A stretch of 62,943 nt of DNA, filler included, from Hausera hauseri (Eukaryota): assembly GCA_046269625.1 (NCBI GenBank). It is 11 parts of 11 records of this genome, joined end to end, with 100 filler letters (N's around TTAATTAATTAA, not from the genome) between each part and the next. Parts side by side here need not be neighbours in the genome. Positions count along the whole stretch, not along the records: positions 1 to 5,605 come from JBJURY010222410.1; 10 more parts are not named here. One strand, given 5' to 3'. Numbering within the stretch: position 1 is the stretch's first letter; each line of letters opens with the position of its first letter. Shown here piece after piece: positions 1 to 49,936 of this stretch. The notes under the pieces were generated by a model. The model saw only the letters and a program-made list of their open reading frames with translations, was not told where the DNA came from and ran no database searches. The position numbers were made by a program, and so were the translations under genes.

Positions 1-185
1 CGTATTGACATTAGAAAACACGTCGTAGCCTGCATAGTTTTCCGTAACACGTCTCGATACAGTAGCACTTTTATCTGTCAAAATAATCTTTACATCGTCC
101 ATTATCATTATTATAATACTAATATTAAAACTACGCGTATATTTATACTCGTTAATTGGGTTTTTAAAGAGAAACAGTAAAACAT

Positions 186-431
186 TTATTGATAATTAAA
201 ATATGCTTCGAATATACGCCAAACCGGGCTTTTGACATCGTCTTTTTCTCTATATCTTTGCAATTCAATATTAAGTCTATACTTTAAATCATCATCATTT
301 AGACATTTCTCGACCAATAAAATCAGTTTTGTTTTTACGGCCGGTAAAACGATAGATTGCTGTTGTAAGGCCGTTTCGTTCAACTTTAAATCGACGTTTA
401 ATTGACGCAAAGCATCAGTGCGTTTATCCAA
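186..431 (-). CDS. Hypothetical Polinton accessory protein (fragment)
   Basis: 81-aa ORF with protein-like composition inside the Polinton gene block; no motif recognised. Confidence 0.3.
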   Translation of the reverse strand: MDKRTDALRQLNVDLKLNETALQQQSIVLPAVKTKLILLVEKCLNDDDLKYRLNIELQRYREKDDVKSPVWRIFEAYFNYQ

Positions 432-833
432 ATTTTCACTTGACAGCCGTTTTGCATGATAAATGTAAATGACACCGGATCATTCAAGGAAAACTATACG
501 GGCGTTTCAGAAAATGCATTTCATACTTTCGAAAAAGTTATTTCGGTAAAAATGCAGGTTTTGACGTGCGGACTGCTTTAATTTTCATTTGCGTATTCTA
601 CTATCGGCCACTTGCCGTTTTAGTAACGTTTTTACTGATTGCTGGACAGGTTCTGTTTTCGGTTTTAGAACTTCAACATTGTCCTTCTCGCCAGCAAACA
701 ACCATGATCAATCTGAACTCTCATTGTCATTGTCACCACTGAGTAGTATCGTTTTATCGTCTTCTTCCATAGTAATAGTGTCTGAACGAACGTGGGAGTG
801 GTACCTATAGTTCGTTGTGCAGAGTACATTATT

Positions 834-1282
834 TTAATTCACTAAAACATTTATATGGTTTTTAATTTGATCAACAGTCGTTTCATAGTCCATTGTCGGA
901 ATACCGAGTATGACAATTGTTTTACTGCTAAACGCATTGACACAAAGTGGGCAAAATAATATCAGTCTCAGTGCAGGAAACAATTTGGGTTCATATGTAC
1001 ATTCAGTGGCCATTGCTAATTTGTACAGATTAATTAATGGACAGTCTAACTCAGTCATTACCGTTACACATTGAATTTGGTCAATGACAATTCCGAATGG
1101 TAGTTGTTGTTTACTGTTGTCAGTTGTGATTGGTCTGCGACAACCCATAGTACGACACTTTCCCGATTGAAATATTATGCACGTAAACTCCGGTGGACAT
1201 ATTGCCTCGGCTTCCATTGATTAAATGGTAATGCGTCGATACACTCGGTAGCAGGTCCGCGGTAGTTGATATTGGTTAACAT
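834..1282 (-). pseudogene. TATA-binding protein (TBP)-like protein, one frameshift near 1190-1215
   Basis: Two TBP pseudo-repeats: MLTNINYRG...FTCIIFQSGKCRTMG (cf. TALIFSSGKMVCTG) and IQCVTV...INLYKLA...YEPKLFPALRL...PLCVNAFSSKTIVILG (cf. IQNMVG...IRLEGL...YEPELFPGLIYRM..PRIVLLIFVSGKVVLTG). Confidence 0.8.
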
Positions 1283-1364
1283 TATGGAAACGGTGTTTAC
1301 ACTAAAAATATTTATATGTTGCTGGCGTGAATATAAACAAAACATGCGAGAAAGGTCCATTAAC
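1283..1364. promoter_or_regulatory. Putative bidirectional promoter with back-to-back TATA boxes
   Basis: TATAAA on the minus strand at 1311-1316 and on the plus strand at 1332-1337, each about 28 nt from the ATG of the TBP-like gene (1282) or the ATPase (1365). Confidence 0.55.
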
Positions 1365-1990
1365 ATGAAACTGCAGAATAGTGCAATCTTCAAGAGTGTA
1401 GACCTTAGTGGAAGTGGTAAAGCACACTTTGTAAATTATTGCACAACTACTGTGACGTATTCCATTCAGTGATTCAATTACATTTACTGGCATCAGGGTG
1501 CTAGTGGTGATGATGGAGTTCGGTCTGACAAATGAGGAATTTTGTCAATTAAAATCGACAACGGTAATAGATGGGTTTGATGAGAACTGGTCTGAGATTA
1601 CGCAGCGGTGACATTATTGTCATTGACGATTTATTCCCGGAAGCCGCGAAACAAACCGACTTCAACAACCTGTTACGAATATTGCACGACACCGTGGTGT
1701 GATGGTTATTTTCATTACGTAAAACATGTTCCATCAAGGCGGACAGCATAGAACACGAAATCTAAACATACACTATTTGGCACTGTTCAAAAATTCTCGT
1801 GATCAGACACAGATTATGTTTCACGACAAGCATTTCCTCATAACCGGGTCTACTTAATCGATGCATACCATGATGCCACGATCAAGCTGCACGGATACCG
1901 GCTTATCGACTTTACACAACAGTGTCCAGATGGCATGCGTGTACGAACAGAAAAGTGTATGTCTATAAACAAATTGGAAAATTGACATGA
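1365..1990 (+). pseudogene. Polinton DNA-packaging ATPase (A32/FtsK-like), frameshifted
   Basis: Degenerate Walker A LSGSGKAHFV, Walker B IIVIDD, then RNLNIHYLALFKNSRD and AYHDAT..HGYRLID...MRVRT, typical of Polinton ATPases. Confidence 0.85.
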
Positions 1991-2242
1991 TAGTACTGAT
2001 AAATGAAGAATTTCCGTAAAACTCTTAAGCGTAAACCTACCAGTGTCCAAAAAGAAACGTGCATCAACTACAGCAAAATGTAATGCTACAGTTAAGCGAT
2101 TAATCAATTTTGTGCTTCGAACAACATCAACAGCAGTGAGGCGCAAATTACCTTCAAAGCGGCAACGATTTTAAACAACTACGCCAACGCATCAATATTC
2201 ACCGATGAAACTTGCGTTTCAAACGTAGTCAACCATACTTTA

Positions 2243-2540
2243 TTGCTTTGCTTAAAGCACCTTCGAGACAAACGAATTATGCTACGATCATTCTCGCAAT
2301 TCGTAGTGGACAATTTAATGGAAATTTTGTACAATATTGTTGTGGGCCATGTAGACATTGGTAGCGGAAAGCGGAATTTGCTAAAGTATCGAAAACGACT
2401 CACTGGCGTTGCCTACGCTCGTAGTAAACGACTGAAACGAGGTCATGTACCAGCAAGATGGCGGATTTATTGGCGCAATTCTACCGGTTGCCATGTCATT
2501 ACTGGGTGCTATCATTGGTGGCAACAGCACCATAGTATAA
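2243..2540 (+). pseudogene. Small basic Polinton core/structural protein with C-terminal QxGGF + hydrophobic helix
   Basis: EILYNIVVGHVDI...KYRKRL followed, after a frameshift, by YQQDGGFIGAILPVAMSLLGAII*, matching the conserved small ORF next to the ATPase in Polintons. Confidence 0.7.
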
Positions 2541-2640
2541 ACAATGAATGTATGTTGTTTTGGCTGTATGGGTACATGGTTTTCATCATTTTGTCCCACT
2601 TTATCGAACACTTCATTGATTTTTCGTTCTAATTGTTGCA

Positions 2641-3696
2641 ATGCAAACAAAAACGACATCGGCAACACCGATAACGATGGACGTATGCTTCGATCCACCT
2701 TATCCCGTCGGGCATAGTCGCGTCTACAAACGGGCAAAGACTGTAGGACACAGTTGACGACAAACCCAACAGTGACTCGGGAAGCAGTTGGCATACAGCC
2801 TGAACAAATAGATAAGAAATCGGTTTCCAACTCGTGCATACCGTGCTGAAAGCGTAAATAATTTATGGCATATGGATCTGATCGGAATGATCCTGTACGC
2901 TAGCATTAATGATGGGTATCGGTACGTACTGACGCGTATTGATGTGTTTAGTCGTTTTTCACGTGCAATTGCCGTCAAATCAAAATCCGGTAAAGAAACT
3001 GCGGATTCCGTTCGCACAAATAAACCAACAACAACCGCTGAAGCATGTACAAACGAATGTGTAAAAAATTCTACAACTCTTACGTCGCATAGATCTCGAA
3101 CCGGTTTGGTGTAAACCACTACTCTATTTTCTCAATACGGTGCTGCACTCGTTGAACGATTTAATCGAACCCTACGCGGCCGACTGAACAAATTCTTTAC
3201 GAAACAATGCAATAAACGCTGGGTAGATGTACTGCCGGATATTATTCATGCAAACAATTATTCAACACATAGTGGAAACAACGAATTACGGTCGGTTGAT
3301 GTAATTGATGATTTGGATATTTGACTCCATTAAAACCGAACACGATAAGCCAAATTTAAACGTCCAAAATATAAAATTGGTGATTATGTACGTATTCCAA
3401 GGCTGAGTACAACACCATTCATCAAGAATTTCAATCAGAACTGGAACGATGACGTTTTTCGAATTTTTACAATTAACACAAAACAAACACCCGTTATGTA
3501 CGTTTTAGATGACAACGGTGAGGATATACGTGGTAAATTCTACGAACAGGAATTGCAGGTACTGTCTGAGAAACCCGATGTATATCGAATTCAGGAAGTT
3601 CTGCGTTTAAGTGGCAAAGGTTTGATTAAACAATATCTCGTCAAGTGGCACGGATACACCACATCAAGTTGGATATTTGCATCGAGGATTGAATGA
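2641..3696 (+). pseudogene. Polinton retroviral-type (rve/c-integrase) integrase with C-terminal chromodomain
   Basis: WHMDL...GYRYVLTRIDVFSRF, VERFNRTLR, KYKIGDYVRI, GKFYEQELQ, chromodomain YRIQEVL...YLVKWHGY..SSWI; several frameshifts. Confidence 0.92.
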
Positions 3697-4661
3697 GCGT
3701 TTATTTAATTCTTGACAGTAATAAAACATTATACCATAACAACAGCAGCAATACGGCCGAACGGTTTATCATGTACTTTGACCAGCCGCTCGATTTACGC
3801 CAGAGCGCGTGGGACGTGGCTTTGAAGGAATTCACATTTACATTTTCACCGATATCGATACGTGAGAACAGTGGTGTTTACTCTTGGCGGAAACTGCTTG
3901 AAGTCACAATTATACGCGGCAATATTTCCCAATTTATAATTTTTTAAACAATCGTTTGCTTCTAAAACACCGATACCTAATTGAATTGTAATTTAAATCA
4001 ATAGCAGATGCTCAGGCATTGGATTTTCAATCTGTCAATGTGCGCTCGAAGGGTCTGAATTTAGGTCGACATGTCATAGCTAGTGAAAGAAAATTGAACT
4101 TTTCCGAAAACATCAAAACCGACATTATGGGGAATTTGAAAATGACAAAATCAAGCTTTTACTCGCATACTACGGATACGGTTTACTGTTGGAATCGGAA
4201 ACAGAATGAGTGTATCCATCAGAGATGCGGCTAAATTGGCTCTAAAGACATTTGAATTAAACGTCGATGGTCGTAATTCGTTTACACTACATGATAATGT
4301 TACATATTTTGCCTTTGATGAACTATTGTCACGGAATCTGGGTTTTAAGAAACGAGAATTCGGTCAAACTGGCGGCGGGCAACCTATTCATCGAATCAAT
4401 ATTTTAACGCATCTAATTGAACCCCTATATGTTGGCGGATACCGTAAACAAATATTGGCTTCTATTGGACTGGATTCGGACACGTACAAAACACAGGGCA
4501 AAATTGCTCATGTACATATCATCCGGCCCATATATTTACTGTTGTCTCACAATGTTGTGCACAGTATTTCCGTGTATATAGTACACGAATTTGGGAAACC
4601 TATTAAATTTCTGTTTGGAGCCAAGACAAATTTGATACTACATTTTCGTCGTCGTCGCTAA
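3693..4661 (+). pseudogene. Polinton minor capsid (penton-like) protein, disrupted
   Basis: N-terminal YLILDSN...NTAERF...LDL...WDVALKE and C-terminal IEPLYVGG...PIYL...GKPIKF...LILHFRRRR. Confidence 0.8.
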
Positions 4662-4823
4662 TAAACAAACTGCGTCATCAGCATCATCATTATCATCGAG
4701 ATCATGAGTAAAAAGAAAAAACTCCACAAATAAATAGAAATCTATTCACAGAGTATAATGTACGTCTGAGTTCATGTCTTTGTACAATCATCAGTCAATA
4801 ATCATATTATATTTAGGATCAAA

Positions 4824-5300
4824 TTATCCATGAGCTCCAGTATATATGCCATCATGTATAATCAGTCTTTTGTCATCAAAGGGACTGAAGGATTTCTTGT
4901 ACTGATCAATTGTTGTGACAAAATGACGTTGGGACCGGATAGATTTCATGGCTGAAAGCAACACTGTTTCATTTTTCAAGGAGTCCACATAATCATCGAA
5001 TGTTATATGATAGGCCAATGTACACCTTTTTTACACTTTTGTACACCTTTTATTCTTTTTTAACATGTCCCTCTGCATCCACGGTGTACATTTTCGGTCC
5101 CAATCCAACAAATTTTGGTATTATTTTGCTACCGACCTCATCCTTGAATTTCCCCAATACTTTCTTATTTACCACTGAATAATTTATGTGGTCTTTTGGA
5201 TAATCCGAATTGTCTAAGTAACAAGCCAAATGAAGAAAATCCATGATTACGTCTTCCATCTGAATGTGTTAGATGAATGAATCTGTATCCATGTACATTA
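4824..5300 (-). pseudogene. Protein-primed DNA polymerase B, C-terminal fragment (family 2)
   Basis: [44 protein letters not shown]; truncated at the 5' end. Confidence 0.88.
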
Positions 5301-5605
5301 ATTGAATCTTTTGCTGATAACGTAAGTGCATTACACTCTAATTGAATTAGTACAGGAGCGTTTTTGATAAATCCAATATGCTCATGTCGACTCAAATTGG
5401 CTTGTCGAACTTGAGTGCCGTTCTTGCCATGCAAATACTCACAAGGTTTTGGTATAAATATCACTATGAAGGAAATGGGGCTTTGCAATTAATTTCTTTG
5501 CTCTCAAATTTTAAAGGTTAAAAAAATGGCGAAAACTTTGTTAAATCTGAAAATTATTATGGGAAATGACGTAATAATTGAAAGCTGTTATTGCGTAATT
5601 TTAGT

Positions 5606-5705
5606 NNNNNNNNNNNNNNNNNNNNNNNNNNNNNNNNNNNNNNNNNNNNTTAATTAATTAANNNNNNNNNNNNNNNNNNNNNNNNNNNNNNNNNNNNNNN
5701 NNNNN
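5606..5705. other. Artificial contig-joining linker (N44-TTAATTAATTAA-N44). Identical linkers at 10025-10124, 16294-16393, 25933-26032, 31606-31705, 36202-36301, 43641-43740, 49013-49112, 53769-53868, 58049-58148
   Basis: Ten identical 100-nt spacers containing a six-frame-stop 12-mer; the sequence on either side is unrelated. Confidence 0.98.
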
Positions 5706-5903
5706 ACGTTTTCTTAGTCATCATTTAATATGAAGTAAATTAAATAACTATATAAAACAGGACGAAACGTGTCGGTGAACAAATATATATTATTGTGACA
5801 TAACAACAATCAAAATCACAAGATTTCAGGAATTGTCACAGTGTACAAATGACTGTAACTGTCTGCCTCGAATCGTCGGAGCGCACAAGGAATCACGCGT
5901 GTG

Positions 5904-8900
5904 TTATATCAAACACCAATGCCCATACGTCCAACTTTTATTTCGACCCACCCACTTTCTGTTATCAACATTATATGACAAAGGGATTTTCGTGTTTGTT
6001 ATAATATACAGCTGATGCTCAATCAATCGTTTGGTCGTTTGACACACAGCCACTGATTGTCCTCATCCTCCTCCTTGTCGTCCTCCGTCTTCTTCTTCTT
6101 CTTCTGCTGCTTCATAGATATGGCGATAATCACCGTGGCTTATTTCCGTCTGAGACAGCTGAACACCTTTTGCGCGAATTTTTGATCCATAGTCCGTCAG
6201 TAGACTGTAGCACTTTGTGCGCAGTATATCCACTCTCGGTACTGAACGCGGCATTCGCTTTCATCCTTAAAGCAGCCGATTTTTTCGTGATGGCGTTGAT
6301 ATATAGCGGATGATTCTGCGGGTAATTGAGTGTGTCCAGTTGTCCATCTGCCATCATTTTCCTGAGCAGTTGGTCACGATTGACGTTTCTCAGCTCAGGG
6401 AAAAGCTGCCTGTGTCACTGGCAACGATACTGATCTTACAGCCGTCGAACATTTGCCGGTAACGTGGCAAGTCGCGATACTGGAGCTCGTACATTCGTAA
6501 ATTGCTCAGGTCCAGTACCACTTGTCCGATATAGCTTGGTTGGTCCAGTACAACTTCATCCCTGTTTAACAGCACGGCTATCAATCCATCGGCAATGTGC
6601 ATTGACCATCTGAACTGAGTCTTGCTGGTGTACGTTACTAGACGCTTTTCATTGTTACATAGAGGCACATTGAGTCGCTTTTTGAGGTTCTCTAACGTTT
6701 TGCCATAGAGAGAATTATTTTTCAACTTGCATTAGTCTTGTTCGAACTTTGTACAAGCTGTAGCTCGTTTTACTGAATTTCCGTCAATTTATGCTTGAAT
6801 ATCGGCACGTGATTGAATTTCATTGCGCGATGTAGCTGTGTGACGCGTACACCGAGCCGCATGTAGAACTGTAGCAGACGCCAATGGACAACGTAATTCA
6901 CCTTCAGTTCATGCTTCATGAGGAGTTTCTTCATCTTTGAGCCGTCGAGCGGATATTGGCTGATTGGTGGAACAGTTAATGGGTCCAAAGCGTCATGCAA
7001 CTCATCCGGTATAACGAGATCAACTTCCATCAGGTAGCCAAATGAGCTATTTTCTGCCGTGTCTGCTCTTGGTAAATTTTCCAATATTGCCTCCAGATCT
7101 TGCTTGTCCGTTAACCATTCAAACGAACCGTACGACAAGGGTTGAGAAAGCACCCAGCCGTACAGGTTATTAATGTCAATGTACAGCATTGATGTGGTGT
7201 TATCATCACTGGTTACGTGGTGCTTGTTGACAAATGTCATGCGGCCACGTATACCAACATCAAACATTCGGGACATTTTTGGGTCTTGCAACAGCTCAAT
7301 TTCCCTGTCCAGCGGCATTATTGCCGATGCCCAACTCATCCTTGATATGGAATAAAAGTTGAGCGGCTCCAGCCTATCTTCCACCAACGCCTTAGTCCGA
7401 AATATCTGAAACACGTCGGCCAGCAAGTACTCGTCCAGTTCCAGATACTGGAGCATGTAATCCAATAGGCTTCTGCATCCGAGCTCTGACCAATATTCCT
7501 GTGCTCTGCGATGTTCATCTTCTGTTATATTGAGCCACTGCGGCGGCAATTCCTCTGCTGTATGAAGCTGCTTGTACGATACAGCAAAGTCACACGGGAA
7601 TATGCCTTTGCTACGTGCAATATGCACCGGAAACGGCGTTGATGTTAACAGCACATCCGGCAAGGCATTTACCAGCTTTGCTAGAGACTCATTGAGGAAC
7701 TGTAATGAGTAAAGGAATCGCACCTAGAACCCTTTTATGTGTGCCGACAGAGACAGGTATTTCTCCATCGTTGTTGAGATTATGGACAGTTCCCACTGTG
7801 AAAATCCATTAATGGCCCATTTTAGAATATGGTGACAATCATAACCCCTGAAGTTATGAAATATCACCGGCAGGAATGGCCGAACATACTGTGCTAAACT
7901 GTATGAATTGCATGCTGCTCCCAGGTATCATCCGGTAAAGTGGTCGTGATCAGGCACTAGCCGTTCCTGTTTATCGAATGGTAATATTTTGTGGCACAGG
8001 TAGCATTTATCTGTGACTGCAAACGTAAGACGTTCGTCGTCTTTTGTCCAGATCAAAGGCTTAGTGCTGTTGTTACTGTATCACGGTGCGATTTTCGCTT
8101 CCACTATTGCCTCCAATTGGTGCAGAAAATCACATACACAGTTCCATCCGTGGAAAACGTAATACTGCGGTTGTCCGGTGGCTTTTATTGGTACTATCAA
8201 TATACCGACGGCGATTGGAATATGCTTTTGGTCATATACGTTGTGCCGCGGTAGAATTGCTTTAATATAGGCATAGACCACATATACTGGACTGTCCGTT
8301 TTCGACCAGTCACTGAATCTCAGCTCTTTTTTGACGGGCATAACGTACATTGTTGTTCCCGATACGTTTTGCCTGCATAGCGCAACGTGTTTGTCCTATG
8401 TCGCTTCTGATCTGAAGCCATGAAAACATATAGGGCACTATTTGAAGCGTATTTGTTTTTGGATGAACTGGTCATGGTCCATGTTCAGCAGTCTGTCCAA
8501 ATATGTTACGGCAACGTAATGAAAATTTTCTGCCTGCTCCAACAGCAACAGGTATATTGGACGTCGATTCGCGTTCCGACTTTGATATATTATGTCCACA
8601 TGAGGATTCTTGTACATTTTCTCATCTGCCGGTATTTCTATTACTGAGTTGTACCGGAAATCGTTGACTGACAGTGTCGGATTACGCCGTTCAAAAGCCG
8701 GAATGATTTTGACTTTCATCGGCATCCAGCTTTCATCAAAGTCCAGTTTGGAAAAATACTGACAATATTGTTTTGAACGATTTGCACGATTTCTTGGCAC
8801 TTTGTCATATTTTAATATGGCTAAAATACTGTAAAGAGAACAGTATTCGTCGCTATTATTTTTTACATTTACTACAATTATAGAGTAAGTAAATCATGTC

Positions 8901-9143
8901 ACTCCACTTTGTAATGACAAAGCCGAGAGTGACAATCTTTACAATTCGCCATCCACTACCCTTTTCCGTGTAGTTGGCGATTTTCTCCTCAAGCTTTTCG
9001 CCAATCTCAGCGATAAAATCCTCGGTATATAGTACACCTCGATGTGACAGGTACCATTGTTTCCTGTCGCCTTGCGAATTTTCGAATTCTGCAAGTGCAT
9101 AATATTGCACTTTGCAGTTGTGGTGGTGTTGAAATTTGTCCAC
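5904..9143 (-). pseudogene. Polinton protein-primed DNA polymerase B (family 1), multiple frameshifts and stops
   Basis: GSGW N-terminal region, exonuclease VVYAYIKA, DHDHFTG..CNS (EndoVII-like) block, motif A YIDINNLYGW, motif B KNNSLYGK, motif C SDTGSF, RAKGV. Confidence 0.93.
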
Positions 9144-9161
9144 TTCAGATTACAACCGGTT

Positions 9162-9854
9162 TTACACAATGGATGGAACATATCTCAATTGCGTTGTTGT
9201 TTTTGTTGTTGTTGTGGTCGCTGACATGTTCACTTCTATATCCACGTACGATTGTTTCAGATCGTACATGACAGTAATGCGTGGTTCCTCCTCCTGTTGC
9301 TCCCGTTCCTGCTGCTCCTTCTGCTGTTTTTGATTTCTGTTGTTTTGCAAGTATTTGTCAAGGCTTGTTAATGCCTGACATTTCCCACTTGTTGAGGGAA
9401 TACTGCTGCTGCTGTTTTTTGCTGCGTCCATTAATATTTGTTTTTTCGATCGATTAAACTGGTTTAAGTGGTCATGGTGCTGATTATAAAATTGTTCATA
9501 GTTGATTTGATCACCAGCTATAGAACAACCGGGACATACATAGGTCTGTTTATTGTGCAGCGTTGTTGTGATACCATAGTATTGCTTCATTGCACTATGG
9601 CAACCATCAACGTTGTGCACTTCACTGGTACAATAACGTGGGTATGTGGGGCAATGCGCAAGAATTATCTTCTTGGACCTCGTAAACGGCCCGAGATGAT
9701 GCTTGTGCATCTCGTAAAAGTCGGTGTACAGGCACTGGGTTGTTGAAGTATTGCATGTGGGACATAGAAATGTGTCCGTCCCCACAGCATAATACTTCGC
9801 CATCTGTTGATGGCACTGATCCTCATCCGCATGTATGCGATTGACGCAGTACAT
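9162..9854 (-). CDS. Cys/His-rich protein with two tandem copies of a putative zinc-binding domain; possibly the pPolB N-terminus
   Basis: Two repeats of YC-x4-H-x4/5-CH-x2-M-x2-YY...CP-x-C...FY-x2-H-x2-HL-x2-F-x-RSKK-x-IL. Confidence 0.65.
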   Translation of the reverse strand: MYCVNRIHADEDQCHQQMAKYYAVGTDTFLCPTCNTSTTQCLYTDFYEMHKHHLGPFTRSKKIILAHCPTYPRYCTSEVHNVDGCHSAMKQYYGITTTLHNKQTYVCPGCSIAGDQINYEQFYNQHHDHLNQFNRSKKQILMDAAKNSSSSIPSTSGKCQALTSLDKYLQNNRNQKQQKEQQEREQQEEEPRITVMYDLKQSYVDIEVNMSATTTTTKTTTQLRYVPSIV

Positions 9855-10003
9855 CGGGTATTGCGAACATTTCTGAATTCGAAATAATTTAAAGTAATGT
9901 TAAATTAAAAACAAATAAAAATATATTAATTATAAATAAACAAATTTAACTAAAACTCACACAGACGCTTGACTAAATCAGTTATAAACGTTTAGTAAAA
10001 CAT

Positions 10004-10124: not shown

Positions 10125-10990
10125 AGCCAGAGTATCAGCTTTCTCATTTCCTTGAATACCATAGTGGGATGGGATCCATTGTATAGTTACTCAATGATGA
10201 CTGCTAAGTCTTTCAGCTGTCAATTTTCTACTCTCAAGGGCTTCTAAGACCAATTTTTGCATCTGTGAGGAATATTACAGGATGTGAGCGAAACTCTGTT
10301 CTTGAGAGTTCCTCAGGTGCGACAATGATTGCTCTGACCTCGGAACTGTGTTTTCCTGTTTGAAGAAAGGAGGGCAGAATGTAGGACAGGCCTGTGTGCC
10401 CAATTCTTATCCCTTTGAAAATATAGTTGATTGTGATTTGAGTACTGACATTGGGGATTCTCGCATGATTCAGAAACGGTCTTGGTTAGTCCATTGCAGA
10501 TGTCAGTCACAAACGCAGCTCAAAAGACAAGATCCGCAGCGCCCATCAATGAAGAATATTGAGCACTGCGGATCTCAGGATATGCAATTTATATTTTGCA
10601 TGACGTGTGGACTACGTGCAAAAGTTGTTTTCAGGGATGATGTTCAGTTTCTTTGTATACACAAGGCCAGGCATATCTGGGAGAGCTGGTGATACTTCAG
10701 TCTCTTCATACTGTCTGTACCAACCTGTGATGCTGTTAACATCAGGAAGTTTTACGTGAGTCTTGAAATATTTTGTATTCGTTGAAATATTTTTCCACAG
10801 AATTAAAAGTACCCTTAGCAAACCGATACAAGTTTTACTAAATCAAATGAACCCTCATGTATACACTCTAAGAAGATCATCTATGATTTTCTTGCCCTTA
10901 GCCTATAAAATGAGAACCTCACAGGCCCAATTTTTGCCTATGGCTAATGGGAGTTATGCTGCTTATTATTGGTTTAAACTCCAGTGTCCT
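10125..10990 (-). mobile_element. Decayed non-LTR retrotransposon (RNase H-containing, I/Nimb-like) fragment
   Basis: Minus strand reads WIPSHYGIQGNEKADTLA at 10125-10180, the RNase H C-terminal motif of LINEs; upstream extent is approximate. Confidence 0.7.
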
Positions 10991-11736
10991 TAGCCCCCTT
11001 TTTTCTGCAGTGTACCAGATTCCTCCAGGCTAAAGCAATAAAGAGAGTAATTAGAATGCTAAAGACAGATGTCTAAGGCCAGGGTGCCCTTAACTGGTGC
11101 CCCGGCAGAATCAGATGGTAGTGCAATGCAAACCCGATCTAACAGCCGGGTGTTGTGTGAACCGACGTATCACTAGGAAAAGGTGCATCCTCACTGTGTC
11201 CAGACCGAACGCCGTGAAAAGATCAATCAGAAACATTCTAATGAATGTTTGAACGTATGGAATGAATAGATCAGGAAAATAATGCCATAGGGGAACGCGG
11301 ATTGTGCCATCACCAGATTTTGCCTTACAACATTTAACTTCCCCCAAAACAACTTATCGCCGGAATAAAGTGAAGAAATAGCTGAGAAGTCTATTTTGAA
11401 TGGGTGAACCCACTGTTTAACGAAGTGTGACAAGGCAGAGAAAAAAAGATTTCAAAAATTAGTCAAAAGTGTGGACGGCATTTCATTAATTTTGCAGTAT
11501 ACGCGAAAAATGAACAAAATCCAGTGATGGGGGTCCAACAACTTGATACTTTAGCCACCGCTTGTATGGAATTTTAACACTTATTTTCACATGGTTTTGT
11601 TTGTAATTTTGTACTTCGTGTAGCCCGTGTTATCAGGAACTTAGCACCATATTTTTGTGGTCCGTAGTTGAGAGTGGAAAGGGGGCAGAGTGGCGAATGC
11701 TGATGCCTCGCCGTTTGCACACGGTTAGCTCAAAAT

Positions 11737-12190
11737 CAGCCGTCCCCAACCTTCTTTGCGCCACGAACTGTTTATTGTCAGACATATTTTCACGGGCCGG
11801 CAAGGTATGAGAGATAAATACAACAAAATAAAATGATACAACCAACACAAGAACTGTTTTTTTGTAAATATAAACGTCGATCCACTCACTGTGTACTTGT
11901 ATGTAACCTTACTAGCAGCGTCTTCCTGACACATCCCGACAACTTTCCCCTTTGTAAAGAAACTTTCCAATAACGTCTGTTTTTACCAAGAGAAGCGTCT
12001 TGACATGCGTCAAGAGTCATAGATGGACGTAACAAATAGAATCCTGTCATTTTTCAAAATAAAACATTGTTCTGACTCAAATATTACATACAACAGAAAT
12101 AATGTTAGTTATATATTCTTTCTGTGAGGCCCGGTAGCGAACGACCCACGGACCGGTGCCGGGCCATGGCCCAGGGGTTGGGGACAGCTA
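11737..12190. mobile_element. hAT-Charlie-type MITE (teleost-like)
   Basis: TIRs CAGCCGTCCCCAACC / GGTTGGGGACAGCTA, MER1/Charlie-like subterminal CCACGGACCGGTGCCGG, degenerate 8-bp TSD (ctcaaaat / atcaacat). Confidence 0.8.
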
Positions 12191-13074
12191 ATCAACATTT
12201 GCCAACTCAAAAACACCTGTAATTCTGTTAATTTAGCAGATTCAGAGGTAAAACTTGATGAGGCAGTTGCTGAAAGTGTTTCACAACACATACTCTGAGT
12301 GCAACATCTGAGAATAATGCATGTCATTGCCATAATATTGTTATAAGGACTCACCAACAGGATTTCTGTTTAATGCTATGCCATAAAAGGGGGTGGGTGT
12401 TATGCATTCCTTCAAAGAACGCTACAGGCCTGTATTGGTTTTGTTTCAACGTGGGTAAAAATGGGTTCAACTTGACTGCATTCACTTTCATCTGCCTTTA
12501 ACATCTCATGTTGCCACTAAAGTTCAACGCTAAATTGCCAGAGTATTTTGTCTTTGAAGTGCCTTAAGTTCCTGAGACAGAGGAGGCCTATCTATCTTTA
12601 CCGCCTTGCAAGATTCCCCTTCTACTGAGGTAATTAATGTTTTATATCTTCGATTCCACTAATTGCTTTGTATTGTATGACTAGGTTTAACCCCCAACTT
12701 TTGCTTCATTTCATTTTAAGCTTAGCAAATATGATAGGCAACATCAGTGAGTTTTTTTGAATGTTTTTCAAAGGAAACAGAAAGGACTGTGCATCGAGAG
12801 AGAAGAGAGTGGGACAGAAGATCATCTCGCTCTTACCTGGCACTATCCATGATGGATTCCACGCCTCCGTCGTTTCCTGAGATGGCATACCTGGCTCCTG
12901 ATCTACCACCGTTAGAGGAACAGGTGACTCTTCCACACTTTCATGGTACAATAATCCTTCTCCGTAATACTCCTGTGGACAGAGTCAAAGCCAGGAGGGC
13001 CCTTTTTGACGAGGTCCTGAGAATCTGGATTTGCTTCCCTGAGCTCTTCTGTATGCCTGCTGACTGGGAGCTCC

Positions 13075-26154: not shown

Positions 26155-26929
26155 TTATCCTGCCCGAGGTGCGATTATTTTGTTTATGATTTCCTCTCCA
26201 TTAGTATTTGTGATAGAGACCTCAATCGGAAAGTACCATCCGTCATCCTTTTCTCCATAGTTTACGGCCAATATCCGGGTATTTTGGCCATCTGGGACTA
26301 ATCTGTAAGATTCTCCATTTTGTTCCATCTCGTCTTCCGATGGTTTCTGTACATGTAATAACGGTGGAAGATAATTCATTACCTCGGTTCGCCACGTCAT
26401 CTCGATCATGATTTTGGTCGGAAGGTCTGCGATCCTAAATTCCAGGGCATAATTCATGAGACTATAGCAACATAGCTCATAAGTACTAAACTTCCATTGT
26501 TGCCCTATTTGCGTAATCCAGGCTTGTCCTACGATCCTGTATTGAATTTCTCCATCAGCGACATGTACAATTGCTGATGTGTCGGTTCATATGGAATTAG
26601 ATCTCTTAAAAGGTATACCCGTGATCCTTCGGGTTTCGCATGGCATATAATCGAACCAGTCTATTTTCTTCTAAGCCCCATTTTAGTCCATTTGGTATTT
26701 TACTTTCTTGATTGAATTCTAGATAGTTTTTGGTTTTCAAATTTTCGCCAATTTGTCGATATAAACTTTTGGACAGTGGTTTAAGAACAGTGACATGCTG
26801 CTGGAAGAAATCATCGATATCGTGATTGGAACTGACTGCTGGATTCTTCATCTTCTCGGTCATACTTACTCTGCTGAAATAAAAATAAAAGTCAATCCTA
26901 AGATAGATCATCGTTTTGAAACAAAACAT
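26155..26929 (-). pseudogene. Unidentified accessory coding region downstream of the membrane-protein ORF
   Basis: ORFs 26606-26929 and 26155-26457 have globular-protein-like composition; acceptor-like TTTTTATTTCAG near 26875. Confidence 0.35.
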
Positions 26930-26968
26930 TTTCTCTGTCTGATGATAGGATAACCTGATCTGTAGTTG

Positions 26969-28321
26969 TCAGGTTATGCTATCATAGAGTCCGTCTTGGT
27001 TCCCTTTTTCCCATTTACCTCCTTTCCGATTTTTACAGCGCTTATTACAATTTTTGGACACTAAAAGAATCGTCGCTGTTATTATGACAAGAACGAAAAT
27101 TGACAAACTGAATATAGCTATTATCGGTAAGTTATTCGATTCAGTAAAACTTTTCGTGGTAAACACATTTTGCGTACTAAGATCTCTATACTGCATTACT
27201 TCGATCTTATTGTCTAGAGTCCGCACTGTATAAGTTTTAGGGTTCTTACCCTTTGCGGTGATTCTGACTATATAGTCATATTGTAGCCGTAATGACCTGC
27301 ACTCAACTTCCTGACTATTCTTTCTCAGGATCACAACTTGGTTGGTGTGCAGGGTGCGAATTCAATTTCGACGTCTTGATTTAACATCTCTTCAGCGTAA
27401 AATAGAATTTTATCGCTTTTTGCCAAAATCTTAACTGGTATGCTTCCTGGCATTTCGTCCGAAGTGACGATCGTAATAGCGAGAGTCGTTCTTGGAACAG
27501 TGGACGGTTTTCTCGTAGTGGTCGGGAATGAAAGTTTCCATATTCCGTTTTTCGGACGGTATCCTCTTAAATAAGTGCTTTGTTGTCCGGGGTACGTATT
27601 GTAACTGATAATCCTGTCCTGGTTGTATTGCACAGCATGTGGTAGATCGGCGTCTGGCCAGATAACAATACTCAGGAGTATGGATGGAAGCATTTAATAG
27701 TATAAATCGGACAGAAATTTGTCTGTCTCCAGGCAGTTCTACTTTAGTTTTGTTTCAAATACATTGGTTTTGAAAGTCTTTTGAAATCCCCATAATGTTA
27801 TAGTATAAGAGTCTTTTAAATTGGTCAGTGCTTCGGGTTATTTCGTCCGTCTTGGCTTGGTTTGCGTCCTTTCGTTGGGGCATTCTTATTACGAGTTCTG
27901 TAATTATATAAGCTTGAGCTCCAAACTGATTAGAATAAAACATGTGAAATCTGTATTCGTAGGCTTGTCCAAAATCCAAATCACAGCATCTTTTCTGATG
28001 TCCGTATGGAAATTCACATGTTCTCATCGTGTTTCTGGTTACAAATAATATTTGAAATTTTACGTGGCTCTGAATCGGTTCGCTTGCTTCAAACCATGCA
28101 TATGGTTTGCTCCAATCCATATCGTGTACTCTAAGTGATTGTATGTTCTGGATGTCCCTGCGTTTCATTACGTATCGTAGTTTTTCGGCTCTAGTTATGG
28201 ATGTCACCTTGGGTACATAGGATGCGATTAACGATAGGGCAAGAATTATTTGCACATATAATATTGGTCTGGTTGCGATTGACGATGTTTTCCTTTCCTT
28301 ATTAACCTTATTCGAACGCAA
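26969..28321 (-). pseudogene. Env-position type-I membrane protein with FN3-like segments (three pieces)
   Basis: Signal-like ILYVQIILALSLIASY; L.FGQAYEYRFHMFYSNQFG and LRLQYDYIVRITAK (FN3-like L-x4-Y-x3-I/F pattern); TM IIAIFSLSIFVLVIITATILLV; basic tail ending GLYDSI. Confidence 0.6.
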
Positions 28322-28329
28322 TTTATAGC

Positions 28330-29985
28330 GTTTATCCGGTCTTATTTTTGTTTTAACTACCCTCTGAATTTATATGACCTCTTCTTTGCCGTTTTTATTT
28401 ATATAAACCATGGTTGGCGTAATCTTAGTAACTTCATAAGGTCCTCTGCCTGTCCTAGTAAGTTTCAGAGATGTGCCTTTCTTTTCTACTGGATAGTGTA
28501 CATAAACCCAGTTTCCGAGTTCTAAATCGTGAGGTCTGGCTTTCTTATTTTATTGTTTCTTGAATTGTTCCTGGTATTCTTTAGACACTTCTTTGGCTAT
28601 CTTCCAACACTTGTGCAATCTTGATTGTAATACTTCGACAAAATTTTGTTCTAAATCCTCCTGAAATTAGTCATAGATCGGTAGGAAGTGCAGCTTCTCT
28701 TCCGTACATCATAAAAAATGGAATGAATCCTGTCGCAGGATGTGGAGTAGTATTAATGACAAACTGTGTACCTTCTAAGAACTCATCCCAATCTTTCTGG
28801 TCTTTTGCGACTACTGTCGATATGATTCATATAACTGTCGCGTTCATCCGTTCGACCATTCCATTACATTGGGGATGATAAACTGTGGTAGTTAATCGTT
28901 CAATCTCAAAAATTTTGGTAATTTTATCGAACAACTCGCTCACAAAGTTTCTTCCTCGGTATGTCAAGATTTGTTCGGGTGGCCCGTATCTGCAAATGAT
29001 TTTCCGGACTACGGCTTCTGCCAAGGTCTCGGCCTTTTGGTCTAATATCGCTATAAGCTCGACGAAATGAGTTAATCGATCTACACAGGTCAATATGTAT
29101 TTGTTGTTCTTATGAGTTGTAGGTAATGGCCCTACAATATCTATAGACATTGCTTGCATCGGTCTATCGGGCACGTCGATAGGTTTAAGCTCGGCGACGT
29201 AGTTTTTCACTTTCCTTTGTTTGGTTGCGCATACTTCTTAAGCATTTGTCCAATTTCTCACATCAATGTAAATACTCGGCAAATAATATTTATTCAAGAT
29301 TCTTTCTAGGGTCTTTTTCCACGACATGTGTCCGGCTAAATACGAATCGTGTTCAGCCATGAGCACTTCCGTTCGTAAACCCTTTGGTATGACGACTAAT
29401 TTCCGTCCTTTTCTTTTGTAATATAACACATTTTCGTGGTTCGAATCTCCAGCGACGCAGTATTTGTGACCATATCGTCGTAGGTGTTTCCGTAACTGAT
29501 GACCCTTGGATGTTACGTTGGAATCAACAAACTCGATAATTTGTTGTATAACCCTGTCTTTTCTCTGTTCGACAGCAATCTTTAATGCTTTATCCAACAC
29601 GAGAGTCCGCTGTCTTTCTACTAAGTCTTCAAGGTGTTCTTTCCTCATTACCGTAACTGCGCTTGTTTTGGTTTTAAATCTCGATAATGCGTCGGCATCG
29701 ACATGTTTACTTCCTGGTTTGTATTGAAATTCAATATTGTAAGGTGAAATTTCCTCTATCCATCTGTTTAGTCTACACGTTGGATTATTTGCTCTGCCTT
29801 TCAAAGTCGTGACTGCTTTATGATCAGTAACGATTATAATTTTTTGTCCATAGACGTATACGTTAAAATGTCGCAGTGCTTCTTTTACTGCCAACGTTTC
29901 CAACTCTGTTACGGAATAATTCTTCTCGGCTTTCTTTAGAGAACGCCCTCCATATGTGATTGGGTGTTCTGTCGTAATACCTCTG
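28330..29985 (-). pseudogene. Gypsy RNase H (partial) + integrase
   Basis: AEKNYSVTELETLAV, TDHK, ADALSR, H..AGH zinc finger, IDIVGPLP, YHPQCNGMVERMN, GPY. Confidence 0.93.
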
Positions 29986-30699
29986 GTTTTCGACAATTCA
30001 TCCTCATACTTTTTAATTTCTCTGCATTTTTCCACGAGCGTCGTATCTTCCATTCTTTAGGATCGAGTTTCTCCTCTTCGCTAGAATGTAAAGGGCATAT
30101 GTCGTTTATCTCATTTATAAATTTCGTCGGCTCACCCATTTCGCTTGGCGTAACTAAATTAATTTCTGGAACGTTAGAGGTGTACTCCGTGCCGATTTCT
30201 AACGCGATTTCGGTTTCTCTCTTTGTACTCGTGTTTTCCTTAATCATTGGGGATCTCGAACGATCCTTGCGTTTTCGTCTCAGTGATAAGCTACGGCCTC
30301 TATTCTTGGTAATTTTAAGTATAAGTGGTTCAAGAAATTCTTCTTTCTCGTCGACCTCTGCCTCCTTAGTTACCGTTTTTATAGTATATATGGGTTCTAC
30401 ATCCGAATCTGCTTCGCCTGGGGTCTCAGGCTTTTCTATTTCATCTAACTTTTTGTTTATTGTAGGAACGTTCTTTTTCCGTGCCATATCACTCAGCCTT
30501 GGTGGGGCAATGTAACGTTCATATTCCGTTTCTGGTTCACGTAGACCGTGATAAACTTCCATTAGTTGTAATTTGTGCTCATATTCGTTTCTAGCTACTA
30601 AAACTTTAGGGTCCTTAGTCTCCGGTTAAGCCTTTAAGAAGCGTCGTAAATCTTGTATCTCAATGATCATTCCTGTATCTCTACGAACACCGTAAATTG

Positions 30700-31605
30700 C
30701 TTCTAAATTTTCATTTTTAATTACGTTAGTCTTACTAGGTTCCACAAACGAGACACTTCGCGGATTCAAACAGGACCTCGCTATGTGTCCTTTTTTTCCA
30801 CATTTGAAACAGACTAAAATGCCATTTCTTCCAACTCTTTGCCGGCCATCTTCGTTTAACGGAGATTTAGATCTATTCGGATTTCTATTGTAGTTCGGTT
30901 GAAACAGAGCCTGTCTAGGGTATATATATTGGCGATTATCATAACTCCGGTTGTTATTATGTCGATTAATGTTTTTGGAGCCATCCAGGCGTTTATCTGT
31001 CTAATAACGTGATTTATTAGAAAAGCTATTTCGACTATTATCAAAATTTTTATTACTGTGTCGCTCGTTTCTCCTATCATAATTACTGTTCTTGTTACGA
31101 TCCCCATAATTCCTGTTAAATCGTCTATCATTCCTATTATTTCGATTTCTATCTCTTTGGTCGCTTTGATCATTATTTCTACAATTTCAGTCATTGTTTC
31201 TGGCATATCTGTCCAATGCCATTTCTAAGTCCTTGGCCAATTGCAATGTCCTATCAAAATTCTCCTGGCGTGCTAAAATCAGTTTCTTTACTATGTCTTT
31301 GGACCAAATACCATTTATTAACTGCGTCATCATCATGACGTCCAAATCTGGAGGGCTCGCCTTTTTTGAGCTTTACGTTCTGCTTCGTTTTTAACTTTGG
31401 CTATGTTTGCTATCCTTAAAGTGCTTACGTAACTGTTTGCCAATTTCTTTAAGACAAAAGCGAATTGGGTTATCGATTCACCCTTTTGTTGAACTCTATT
31501 CTGAAAAGCCATAAGCTTTTGTTGCGGAGTTACAGTCGGTAACAATTTTCGATTCAAGGCTCCTACCATGGAGGACCAAGTTTTCTTCTCATCATCGGTG
31601 AGTTC
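30700..31605 (-). pseudogene. Gag with CCHC zinc knuckle
   Basis: RVQQKGESITQFA, N/D/R-rich linker, CFKCGKKGHIARSC at about 30775-30815. Confidence 0.8.
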
Positions 31606-32118
31606 NNNNNNNNNNNNNNNNNNNNNNNNNNNNNNNNNNNNNNNNNNNNTTAATTAATTAANNNNNNNNNNNNNNNNNNNNNNNNNNNNNNNNNNNNNNN
31701 NNNNNATCATCAAATTTAAATGGACTTCCTTTCTAGAGAGACGAATCATCAGTTCTTTTGCAATGACCATATTCGGAATATAGTCAGAAAAGGAACCTGT
31801 CTATTAAATTAAAATCAACAACCAATTAATAGGTTAAATTAATTATTCTTTTACGCTTGATAAAACTTTTCAACTTAAAGTGGGCACTAATCAAAGAAAC
31901 ATGTTTCAACATAATTCCAGTGTACTTTTGTTTGCTCATTGATATCCTTCATGATGTCATGGCGGCGTAACAATTTCCAAACGTCTAAGTCGTGTGATAT
32001 TTGTGTAATAACTGTAATTTAAGGATGGTGATCCAACACATCTGCTAGAGAAGCATTATATTTTTCCATAACATATGGCGTAGAATTACAAAATTATAGG
32101 ATTTTAAAACATTAACGT

Positions 32119-35100
32119 TTGTGTGCTTGTCAAACTTTTTCACCTAAAAGTAGCTCAAACATAGTCTATCATGTAAAACGTCTCTCTAGTGTAGATAGAA
32201 ACAGAAAGTACAGTTGTGAAGTTGAACTATTCGATGAAAGAAAAATCTGTTCTTCGATTCCCAGGGTGGGAAATATGAACTGTATCAAAGAATTAAGAAA
32301 AAAGGGAATTTTTATTAGCGATGTTTTAGAAAAAGAGAACTCTATATTATTTGATGAAAATCCCCAAGAAGTCCATTTGTTGTTAGGAGCAGACGTAGTG
32401 GGAAGCTTATTTACAGGCAAAATCGAACATCTCTCATGGCGAGAGTTAGTGGCTATAGAAACAAAACTAGGATGGACTTTAATGGGTAAAATGGGAACTG
32501 GATCCACTAATACAGAAAATTCTCTCTCGACGCTATCCCTCTCTCTGCATGTAGCTGATGCTAAGCTTGCAGACCTCTGGCGCTTAGACACCTTAGGCAT
32601 TTTAGACAACGAAGAAAATAAAAATAAGAGTATGTTCGAAGATGAAGCAATTAAATATTTTTTGAACACAGTAAAAAGGGATAAAGAAGGTAGATATGAG
32701 GTATCACTACCGTGGGTTTTGGACAGCTGTATTTTACCTAGCAATCGAAACTTAGCGGAAAAATGCCTGCACAAGATTGATAAAAAACTTCTTAGTTCAA
32801 ATAAAAGAGAGGATTATGATAAAATCTTTAAACATTGGGAATCTAATGATATAATAGAACGGGTACCTGATAAATACACAATGAAAGAATCTGGTACTCA
32901 TTATTTACCTCATCGCCCAGTTATTAAAGAAACGAGCGAGACAACGAAAATACGTCCAGTCTACAATGCCTCGGCACGAATGAAAAACGCTCCTTCGCTG
33001 AATGACTGTTTGACCAAGGGTCCTAATTTGATAGAAATAATACCCAGTATATTGAACCGTTTTCGAAAATATCCTATTGGTATTTCATCAGACATTGAAA
33101 AAGCTTTCCTACAAATAAGTGTACAAGAAAATGATCGCGATTTCTTAAGGTTTTTATGGTTCGATGACGAAAATAATACGAAAGTTTACAGACACAAACG
33201 AGTAGTTTTTGGACTCACATCGAGTCCATTTCTTTTGGCAGCGACTCTCAATTACCATTTGGACCAAGTTCCAGAAGAATTAGCTGAGACAGCTCAACGT
33301 TTAAGAGACTCATTCTACGTTGATAATTCGGTCCTTAGTCTAAATTCCACTGAAGAAATTGAAAAATTCATTATGGAGTCTCAAATGATTTTATCGTCTG
33401 CGTGCTTCAACCTAAGATGTTGGAGATCAAATTTACCGAATGCATTGATCAGTCAGCCTGAAACCAAATCCAAAAACTGTCCTGTGTTAGGAATGATATG
33501 GAACCTAGAAAATGATACTCTAACGTGTAAGATCGAGGAAACATGCGAGGAAACTTCAGATTTTATGACCAAAAGAAAGGTGTTGTCAGTGGCACAAAGG
33601 ATCTTTGACCCCATCGGCGTCACAGCTCCTGTAGTACTCGTAGCGAAAGAAATTTTGCAAAAAACGTGGCTTCAGAAACTAAAATGGGATGAAGAATTGC
33701 CAGCATCTTTGAGAAAGAAATTTCAATCATGGTACAATCAATTGTATTTACTTTCTCAATTATCAGTGCCCCGTTGGTTGAACATTCACCGTTATAATGA
33801 AGATCGAAGTTCCCTACATGTCTTTTGCGATGCGAGTCAGAGAGCATACGCGACTTGTGTATACTTGAGAATTGAAACTGCCTCTGAAGTCAAAGTTCAG
33901 TTAATAAACGCTAGAAGTCGTGTAGCTCCACTAAAACCAATGACAATCCCTCGTTTGGAACTTTTATCCTGTGTGATTGGTGCGAGACTTGTTTCAACAG
34001 TTTCATCCGATTTAAACATACCTAATATAAAAATTGTACTCTGGAGCGATTCTACTACGGCTCTAGGCTGGATCAACCGAGACCAGCAGTGGGGAACATT
34101 TGTTCATAATAGAGTAAAGGAAATTAGGTCTTTGACAACTCCATCCTGTTGGAGACATATTCCTGGCAATATGAACGCTGCCGACCTTCCATCAAGAGGT
34201 TGTTCTGCTGAGCAACTAGTGAAATCGAAATGGTGGAAGGGACCTTCTTTGCTTTATTTACCAGAAAGTGAATGGCCGCAAACCGATGAAAAAGCTGATG
34301 AAGAGCTCCTAGCTGCAGAAAATAGGAAAACAGTCTTGACTGTTTTAGACAACGATAATCGGGATTCAAATTGGTATTATAAATATTTTTCCTCATATAA
34401 GAAAGTAATTAGAATGATAGCTTGGATCTTCCGTTTTTATAATAATGTAAAAGGGTCAGAGAGGAACATGTCTTCAAATTTGTCAGTCTGCGAAATTGAA
34501 AAGGCTGAAAAGTCAGTATGTCGTCTGATTCAAAAGGACTCATTTGAAGGTCTAACAGACAATTCAATTCGTTCTTTAAGACCGATAGTAGACAAAAATG
34601 GCATTTTACGGGCAAAGACTAACGTAGTATATCGAAAAGATTTTCGCTATCCAATAATTTTACCGTCTAAACATCCAGTTGTTCATTTACTAATTTTCGA
34701 AAGACATATAGAGCTGCAACATGCAGGCGTCACAACACTGATGGCAAATTTAAGAGAAAACTACTGGATCTTAAAATCAAGAAAAACTGTTCGGGGTGTC
34801 ATAAGCAAATGTATAAAATGCAAACGATTTAATGTGTCACACTCAGAGACAGAACCGGGAATTCCTCCTGAAGACAGAGTTCGAGATGCAGCTATATTCG
34901 AAGTTGTTGGTGTTGATCTAGCAGGCCCACTCTATTTGAAAGATAACAAGAAATCGTGGATAGTCTTATTCACATGCGCTAACTACCGTGCAGTACATTT
35001 AGAACTGGTTACCTCACTCTCATCTGAAGCTTTTATCCAATCTTTGAGAAGATTTATTGCTAGGAGAGGTAAACCACACATCGTATATTCCGATAATGGA

Positions 35101-47400: not shown

Positions 47401-47555
47401 GCTTCAGTCTCCTGACGGACTGTGGACCGAAAATGCGTGCAAAAGGAGTTCAACTGTCCCAGACGGAAATCAGCCACGGTGATTATCGCCGAATCTATGA
47501 AGAAAAAGAAGGACAATCAAAGGCTGTTGTGTCGCAAACGATCATCCAAGCGTAA
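44419..47555 (+). pseudogene. Polinton protein-primed DNA polymerase B (family 1), frameshifted; paralog of 5904-9143
   Basis: NVKNTNDEYCFLYS, CPVC..H zinc finger, HADIEA, DHDHFTG..CNSCN, FHNF..YD, YIDINNLYGW, NSMYGK, DTDSF, FKDE, RPKC, RAKGV. Confidence 0.95.
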
Positions 47556-48049
47556 ATTTCCCCAATTTTCATATTGGTGATTTAACGCTGTGCAGATCCT
47601 TGTATTCTTTCAACTTCAATGTTAAATGGCCTTTAGCTCCTTCCGGTAGAAAAACTGCTGCTGCTGTGCTGCTGTTTCTTTGCCATGTGAACTGACAATT
47701 TTCGCCATATTTCCTATGAGAAAAATCGACGATGTATCTCGGATATCGTTACTACAACGCTAAACGCGTTGCGCAGATAATGTAAGTTGTATCCATTATA
47801 CAACCGGGAATTTCTGATCGAATATTCGCTGTACCGTGGCTTTTTGAGAGACTGTCACCACCTGCTGAATTGTTTTCCAAAGATATTGTTTAAAAGAAGA
47901 CAAACGTGAACTGAAATTACATCCGTATTTATATTAAAGGTCTGTTTTCATTTTAAACAATAGATATTTACTTTTTGAGTATTGTCTCACATCACAATGA
48001 TACAAAGTACCCCAACATCATTGAAGCCCATGTTCCGTTATTGAAGAAG

Positions 48050-49910: not shown

Positions 49911-49936
49911 AAATCGTTGGATACGAAAATTAACTT

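Follow-up and report, generated by a model that had tools for sequence, protein, structure and literature searches.

Polintons carry a family of reduced TBP-like proteins whose intact members probably act as late-promoter specificity factors, reading the motif TATAAAC(A) and recruiting host TFIIB and Pol II. The window analysed here (62,943 nt from Hausera hauseri, assembly GCA_046269625.1) holds one member of this family. Judging from its sequence, this member is a decayed copy, a pseudogene, because it has a frame break and departs from the family at near-invariant positions. Being broken, it is unable to do the job of a late factor itself; it is a relic, and the interest lies in the family.

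Results

A decayed TBP-like gene beside the packaging ATPase of a Polinton

The TBP-like gene of the window runs from an ATG at 1282-1280 to a stop at 836-834 (Table 1). A tblastn comparison with P0001, an intact natural homolog of 160 aa, aligned with it in two segments, at 1282-1190 (74% identity over 31 aa) and, in another frame, at 1193-852 (74% over 114 aa), which places one frame break near 1190. Both segments are free of internal stops, the gene has no intron, and overall it is 72-74% identical to P0001. Its 128-codon C-terminal frame (1220-837) matches the Pfam TBP family PF00352 (E 6e-8, 32.8 bits; cut-off 22.9), and the 24 PDB sequences that this frame retrieves at E <=10 are all TBPs or TBP fusions, with TBPs at E 1e-5. 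Three of the four intercalating phenylalanines are kept (the equivalents of yeast F116, F190, and F207), and the F99 position is Pro. At a few positions that are near-invariant elsewhere in the family, the copy has other residues; one of these positions belongs to the TFIIB stirrup, where only the first of two glutamates is kept.

The gene lies head-to-head with a packaging ATPase which probably starts with the ATG at 1365, so that 82 bp separate the two starts. This spacer holds a back-to-back pair of boxes, TATAAATA pointing toward TBP and TATAAACA toward the ATPase. A sequence-only reading of the locus had described an intronless, two-repeat TBP fold of about 150 aa directly beside the packaging ATPase, with three of four intercalating phenylalanines, a shortened first repeat and one frameshift, and all of these features were recovered, the fold and the shortening also in the modelled homolog described below.

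Table 1. Features of the window, with the evidence for each
Feature	Position	Strand	Evidence or remark
Broken ORF directly downstream of TBP	188-770	-	No Pfam match in 189-479, no marker-gene match
Reduced TBP-like gene, ~150 codons	834..1282	-	Pseudogenised, one frame break; tblastn, Pfam and PDB matches
Canonical TATA box TATAAATA	1309..1316	-	34 nt before TBP ATG; likely early host-TBP promoter
Variant box TATAAACA	1332..1339	+	33 nt before ATPase ATG; predicted late promoter
A32-like packaging ATPase, broken over several frames	1365..1985, end approximate	+	tblastn 1359-1952, E 6e-42; homologs match Pox_A32
TATAAAC box before small basic ORF and core-protein gene	1964..1970	+	Motif scan
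Conserved small virion-module gene, broken	2221..2535	+	tblastn 2221-2443, E 1e-13; ends in GGF-hydrophobic motif; putatively core-protein-like
TATAAAC box upstream of integrase region	2536..2542	+	Motif scan
rve integrase with chromodomain-like tail, broken	2704..3702	+	tblastn E 2e-74
Minor-capsid-like gene, broken	3693..4661	+	Named for its position and its likeness to the gene that follows integrase in intact elements
Further pPolB C-terminal fragment	5080-5451		
DNA polymerase B, protein-primed (pPolB), broken	5910..9113	-	Beyond the gap at 5606-5705
Gypsy-like element	26155-31224	-	Zinc knuckle, RNase H-like and integrase pieces, judged by eye
Intact BEL/Pao pol frame	32116-35955	+	1279 codons
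Second, related Polinton	44482-62941 (~44.5-62.9 kb)		Interrupted by gaps and other DNA

The TBP, ATPase, core-protein, integrase, and minor-capsid genes all stand on one contig (1-5605), and the main pPolB lies past the first gap. This gap is one of ten in the window with a single layout (44 N, 12 bases, 44 N), and because the layout is identical in all ten, links across them are joins only. The window contains the Polintoviricetes gene set of pPolB, rve integrase and A32 ATPase, and these three, with capsid genes and an adenain-like protease, are shared by the window and the related loci described below with Polintons, Mavericks and adintoviruses. The first element is cut off by the left edge of the window and by gaps, and neither a major capsid nor a protease gene was detected in it (window 1-10,000). 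As for terminal inverted repeats and a target-site duplication, the long inverted repeats in the window are pPolB copies or gap padding, the element being incomplete at the edge and gaps. A candidate major-capsid start at 1-102 (minus strand) found no support in tblastn and Pfam searches.

The second Polinton comprises genes for pPolB (77-83% alike to that of the first), a DEDD-like protein, protease, major capsid, core protein and minor capsid, with the major capsid and protease at 60.5-62.2 kb; any TBP gene of this element would be past the window edge. TATAAAC precedes its major-capsid and core genes; in this part of the window boxes lie at 62272 and 62735. The flanking DNA includes the intact BEL/Pao element and pieces of CYFIP, aldehyde dehydrogenase and phosphoglucomutase, and the gypsy-like element is followed by ORFs that, by eye, may represent an envelope-like gene. 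BEL/Pao elements are mainly animal. From the flanking genes only, the host would be an animal. One sequencing run covered the window with 14,640 contigs across all 30 bins, mostly <95% alike, a coverage that is compatible with many diverged copies and is not a copy number.

The family keeps the TBP saddle with a reduced first lobe and a changed DNA face

An AlphaFold model of P0001 (12-row alignment; pLDDT 87.1, pTM 0.78) superposes on human TBP with Z 13.0 and an rmsd of 2.4 A over 145 of 179 residues. A Foldseek search with the model placed cellular TBPs at the top (best E 7e-9) and viral TBPs after them, and intact homologs match PF00352 at 40-65 bits. Lobe 1 of the model has strands and no helix of four or more residues before residue 85, and lobe 2 is normal. 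In a hand-selected set of 145 full-length short-form sequences, which we used for all conservation counts, the G49-Q71 segment, where TBP has its helix H2, is a median of 20 residues long, versus 33 in yeast numbering. The predicted structure and the alignment together show a family that keeps the saddle and lacks the lobe-1 helices H1 and H2.

In TBP, the contacts to TFIIA, TAF1, Mot1 and Brf are lobe-1 basic residues, mostly in H2, and those to TFIIB are two C-lobe glutamates (PMC7221094). The equivalents of these glutamates (E186 and E188; C.L3.2 and C.L3.4) are present in 139/145 and 145/145 family members, respectively. No match to the TFIIB family was found among the 119 longer, unspliced ORFs scanned, from elements that are incomplete.

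The F116, F190 and F207 equivalents are Phe in 145, 144 and 145 of the 145 sequences, and the four-Phe trait of cellular TBP is absent from the family, the F99 position being Pro in 141. Considering the 16 canonical DNA-contact positions (PMC12529657, Table 1, with L189 set aside and the register taken from the alignment), seven are kept or conservatively changed (N69, L114, F116, F190, P191, F207 and V213) and nine are replaced (V71, F99, A101, V122, T124, N159, V161, L205 and T215), most of them nearly invariantly: besides the Pro at F99, the replacing residues include Asn at V71 (141), Arg at V122 (143), Met at T124 (145), Ser at N159 (142) and Asn at L205 (145). Arg at I194 (140) and Cys at V203 (144) are similarly prevalent. 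The altered-specificity mutant TBPm3 (PMC1636458) is changed at I194, V203 and L205, and in the family all three positions carry fixed non-canonical residues. The N-lobe L5.1 position, which is Trp in TBPL1 (PMC7221094), is Phe in 145/145.

A family under purifying selection, apart from the sampled cellular TBPs

A profile of 12 homologs retrieved 951 proteins at E <=1e-5 among 6,564 candidates; lengths range from 131 to 224 aa among the 120 matches listed of the 951, mostly 144-165 aa. An exhaustive search yielded 53 representatives (50% identity) at E <=1e-30 and 569 at E <=1e-10. The 143 new sequences include short forms like that of the window, longer forms keeping lobe-1 segments, and a few canonical TBPs.

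We built a tree of 83 chosen rows (LG+G4, quick search, SH-aLRT support only), comprising 40 short forms, 30 long forms and 13 canonical-type sequences; the last include four eukaryote-type and three archaea-type rows, labelled from sequence, and no animal TBP or TRF2/TBPL1. The 40 short and 30 long forms stand apart from the 13 canonical-type rows (SH-aLRT 99), and the C-terminal frame of the window's gene is sister to P0001, deep among the short forms. Of the outcomes that would have told against the sequence-only reading, none was seen: the fold is that of TBP, the family does not nest in this tree among the cellular TBPs sampled, and it is linked to Polinton genes at other loci. Selection was estimated for 30 genes from the loci described below, of which 19 pairs, not independent of one another, passed the filter (>62% identity, >5 differences). 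The dN/dS ratio is 0.12-0.34 in 17/19 pairs and saturated in two; the family is under purifying selection.

The ~30 longer clade members (P0203-P0278) retain the lobe-1 segments, but most of the changed residues of the DNA face are already in place in them. Since these forms combine the lobe-1 segments with the altered DNA face, the change in specificity seems to be older than the loss of the helices.

TBP genes recur in divergent Polintons

Searching metagenomes with the TBP profile gave 37 loci, 19 of which hold a Polinton core gene (ATPase, integrase, capsid, protease or pPolB), so that the co-localisation proposed from the window recurs at other loci. A further 14/37 have only a conserved SSB-like or DEDD-like neighbour, and 4/37, all <=2.1 kb, have neither; at lengths of >=3.3 kb, 11/12 loci hold a core gene. 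The position of the TBP gene varies, being near the ATPase in some loci and after the protease in others. Major-capsid and protease genes occur in the related TBP loci L006, L016, L022, L026, L029 and L038. Two tandem minor-capsid-like genes lie in one element (L016:5616-7684), and a ubiquitin-conjugating E2 gene and a RING-finger gene were seen within or beside TBP-bearing Polintons (L016:225-719, minus strand, and L028:1710-2168, plus strand). A conserved neighbour of ~116 aa (L006:1788-2135 and relatives), several copies of which have an apparent 5' exon and intron, was modelled as an Enc34/T7 gp2.5-type SSB (Z 8.5); it was rejected as a TFIIB-like partner since it models as an OB-fold single-strand binding protein.

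In the reverse test, the ATPase query gave four loci (L038-L041) from genome bins labelled bacteria, which are probably mis-binned; these Polinton contigs and one zf-AD zinc-finger contig inside bacteria-labelled bins look like probable eukaryotic contamination. Both of the ATPase-found elements of 12.7 kb carry a TBP gene. That of L038 is short and intact (10246-10695); that of L039, which has a PF03175-type pPolB, encodes a canonical-like protein of full length (185 aa) that is not a member of the family, so that TBPs of at least two types occur in Polintons. No TBP was seen in L041 (7.9 kb, of the L039 lineage, incomplete), and L040 is a fragment. The L039 TBP (11568-12122, minus strand) keeps the first Phe, and a homolog search with it returned only itself and no close homolog. 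It suggests a second capture of TBP by Polintons. Its neighbours at 10818-11573 and 12171-12713 may be PC4-like, judged by eye from a motif and with no Pfam support. Among IMG/VR viral contigs, no relative was confirmed for the TBP, ATPase or major-capsid queries.

TATAAAC marks virion-module genes

Alignment of upstream regions revealed a single motif, TATAAAC, with A as the usual next base (position 8: A in 62/80 sites, G in 13/80). Counted within 100 nt of the start, with near-identical contexts removed, TATAAAC precedes 42/53 virion-module starts versus 1/47 TBP, SSB or pPolB starts (TBP 0/27, so that its own start is without the motif) and 106/2,478 background windows; the loci are related, and these counts are not independent. 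By gene, the motif is found before 10/11 ATPase, 8/8 core, 3/6 integrase, 3/6 minor-capsid, 5/6 second-core, 5/6 major-capsid, 2/3 protease and 6/7 DEDD-like starts, the last being counted in the virion module by position; 11/53 virion-module starts are without the exact motif. For the ATPase, core and DEDD genes, most motifs stand at -29 to -52 from the ATG.

Because the genes are packed end to end, the motif often lies inside the preceding gene. Across 34 virion-module ORFs, 23 copies fall within the final 105 nt of an ORF (3,570 nt in all) and a single one in the 21,984 nt that remain. Ile-Asn codon pairs spell TATAAAC in 13/23 cases in gene tails versus 1/39 elsewhere, a codon choice that points to selection on the DNA. 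In most of the long loci the motif is strand-biased (11 copies on one strand and none on the other in L038 and L005, nine and none in L026 and L009). L006 fits weakly, with five plus and four minus copies and with xATAAACA at its ATPase and major-capsid starts. In the control lineage, L039 (with the full-length TBP) and L041 each have two TATAAAC copies per strand, at chance, and are rich in TATAAAA. Over the whole window, TATAAAC occurs 17 times versus 12.2 +/- 3.1 expected, a number reached by 7/100 shuffles and not above chance.

An unlikely alternative is that TATAAAC(A) is read by host factors, either a weakly binding host TBP or a forkhead protein, and that the element's TBP is only a general booster. 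The forkhead consensus is RYAAAYA, which we take ATAAACA to match; the prevalence of A at position 8 and the few starts with xATAAACA are in its favour. Host TBP can also accommodate the motif: it binds C(-25) boxes according to the title of PDB 1qn3, Hoogsteen pairs avoid a leucine clash when position 7 is C (PMC4402545, PMC8643651; a result of Patikoglou 1999), and TATAAACG gives 27% of the activity of TATAAATA with host TBP in plant cells (PMC10005294). However, the motif needs its leading T (the next base is C in 118/418 cases of TATAAA and in only 97/814 of [ACG]ATAAA), position 8 is G at some sites, the spacing to the ATG is TATA-like, and the DNA face of the protein is fixed in a non-canonical state that would be needless for a generic booster.

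Discussion

The sequence-only reading had proposed a promoter-specificity factor for late genes or a decoy of host TBP/TFIID. Of the two we favour the specificity factor, as the virion genes are marked by a non-canonical promoter motif that fits it, the function itself being a prediction from sequence. A specificity factor could work as follows. The TBP gene would be transcribed early by host TBP from its canonical box. The reduced protein would then work outside TFIID, free of the TAF1 hold, of Mot1/BTAF1 eviction and of the usual Brf1 complexes, an escape that we predict from the missing lobe-1 helices H1 and H2. The family-specific residues of the DNA face, several of them in lobe 1, would accept C at position 7, a base that host TBP handles poorly and through a strained Hoogsteen pair; lobe 1 is the half of cellular TBP that holds the 3' end of the box. 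Host TFIIB would be the adapter, in view of the two retained glutamates and the lack of any TFIIB-like ORF among those scanned. The outcome would be an early-to-late switch like the TATT system of herpesviruses, run by one 150-aa protein. The motif and the protein may also be shared by descent and not coupled, because the control consists of two related elements that also differ in polymerase type.

Among the closest counterparts is the herpesvirus vTBP (KSHV ORF24, EBV BcRF1, HCMV UL87), likewise a viral TBP fold with a rebuilt DNA face (PMC6541308, PMC12529657), changed at several of the same positions as the Polinton family (V122, T124, V161, L205 and T215). A variant TATA box at structural genes and the use of host Pol II, the latter presumed for Polintons, would extend the likeness, as a functional analogy only. 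ORF24 is a 752-aa protein that binds Pol II directly through an N-terminal domain, has an extra C-terminal DNA-binding domain, needs five more viral proteins, is without the TFIIB glutamates and reads TATTWAA (PMC6541308, PMC12529657). By contrast, the glutamates are kept in the Polinton protein of ~150 aa, from which F99 and the two lobe-1 helices have gone; no partner of it was detected, and it would read TATAAAC. With cellular TBP (PF00352; PDB 1cdw, 1ytb, 7egb), the family shares the saddle, N69, F116, F190, P191, F207, V213 and the acidic stirrup, but it is only ~21-26% identical in structural alignment, has no lobe-1 helices and nine of 16 contacts replaced, and forms a separate clade. 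The TBP-like proteins of Nucleocytoviricota share with it a TBP fold in a virus-encoded protein (matches in BFVD start at E 2e-7) and the loss of eukaryotic N-lobe regulatory signatures (PMC7221094), whereas they are longer and 7-20% identical to the Polinton proteins; the TFIIB glutamate is present in ~40% of them, almost all accompanied by a viral TFIIB (PMC7221094), as against 139/145 and no TFIIB-like ORF detected in the Polinton family.

The sequence-only reading knew of no description of a TBP in animal Polintons. The searched parts of Polinton surveys name no TBP among their genes, and TATA and TFII likewise go unmentioned there. The claim is softened by Starrett et al. 2021 (PMC8502044), whose Fig. 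5 legend, in the section on non-animal datasets, has the label 'TBP' for MELD viruses with adintovirus-like PolB. The label marks a TBP-similar gene in a Polinton-type element, which may be of this family, of the L039 type or another, and the text of that section gives no structure, conservation or promoter analysis of it. It was the only prior description of a Polinton TBP found in a search of openly readable papers.

A decoy or shut-off factor, which would bind host TFIIB or TATA boxes without initiation and so damp host or early element transcription, is quite unlikely. A protein that keeps the TFIIB stirrup and has lost the TFIIA/TAF surface could make a dominant-negative, yet this would leave unexplained both a private motif at virion-gene starts that is nearly absent from gene bodies and the invariant new residues of the DNA face. 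We consider it very unlikely that the protein is an architectural DNA-bending factor for replication, integration or packaging: the gene often adjoins one with the Enc34/T7 SSB-like predicted fold (rmsd 2.8 over 103 residues), and TBP-related folds occur in replication initiators (Z 6.2), but such a role does not account for near-invariant TFIIB-contact glutamates or for a motif at promoter distance from gene starts. A decayed host TBP/TRF retrocopy inside a Polinton, which an intronless, broken, TBP-like gene and a tree without animal TBP or TRF2/TBPL1 might recall, is scarcely credible and largely refuted by the identity to P0001, the 70-row clade apart from the sampled cellular TBPs, the purifying selection, the recurrence of the family in divergent Polintons at differing positions and the Phe, in place of the Trp of TBPL1, at L5.1.

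A wider claim, whose chances we put as evenly balanced, is that a large Polinton lineage runs an orthogonal, one-protein late system, in which a TBP without the TFIIA/TAF1/Mot1/Brf1 surface and specific for TATAAAC acts via host TFIIB. This would be a minimal, regulator-free pair of TBP and promoter serving a programmed early/late (lytic-type) cascade, in elements that captured TBP at least twice.

If the late-factor reading is true, the conserved TBP variant and its matching box would be the missing late switch for Polintons, and evidence of an early/late cascade in elements with virions as yet unseen. The family would then also be a natural experiment on whether a TBP without lobe-1 helices can initiate with TFIIB alone, and on which residues determine position 7 of the TATA box. 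With a single small protein and a motif of 7 bp, the question of a late switch becomes testable, and the pair points to where active elements may be sought.
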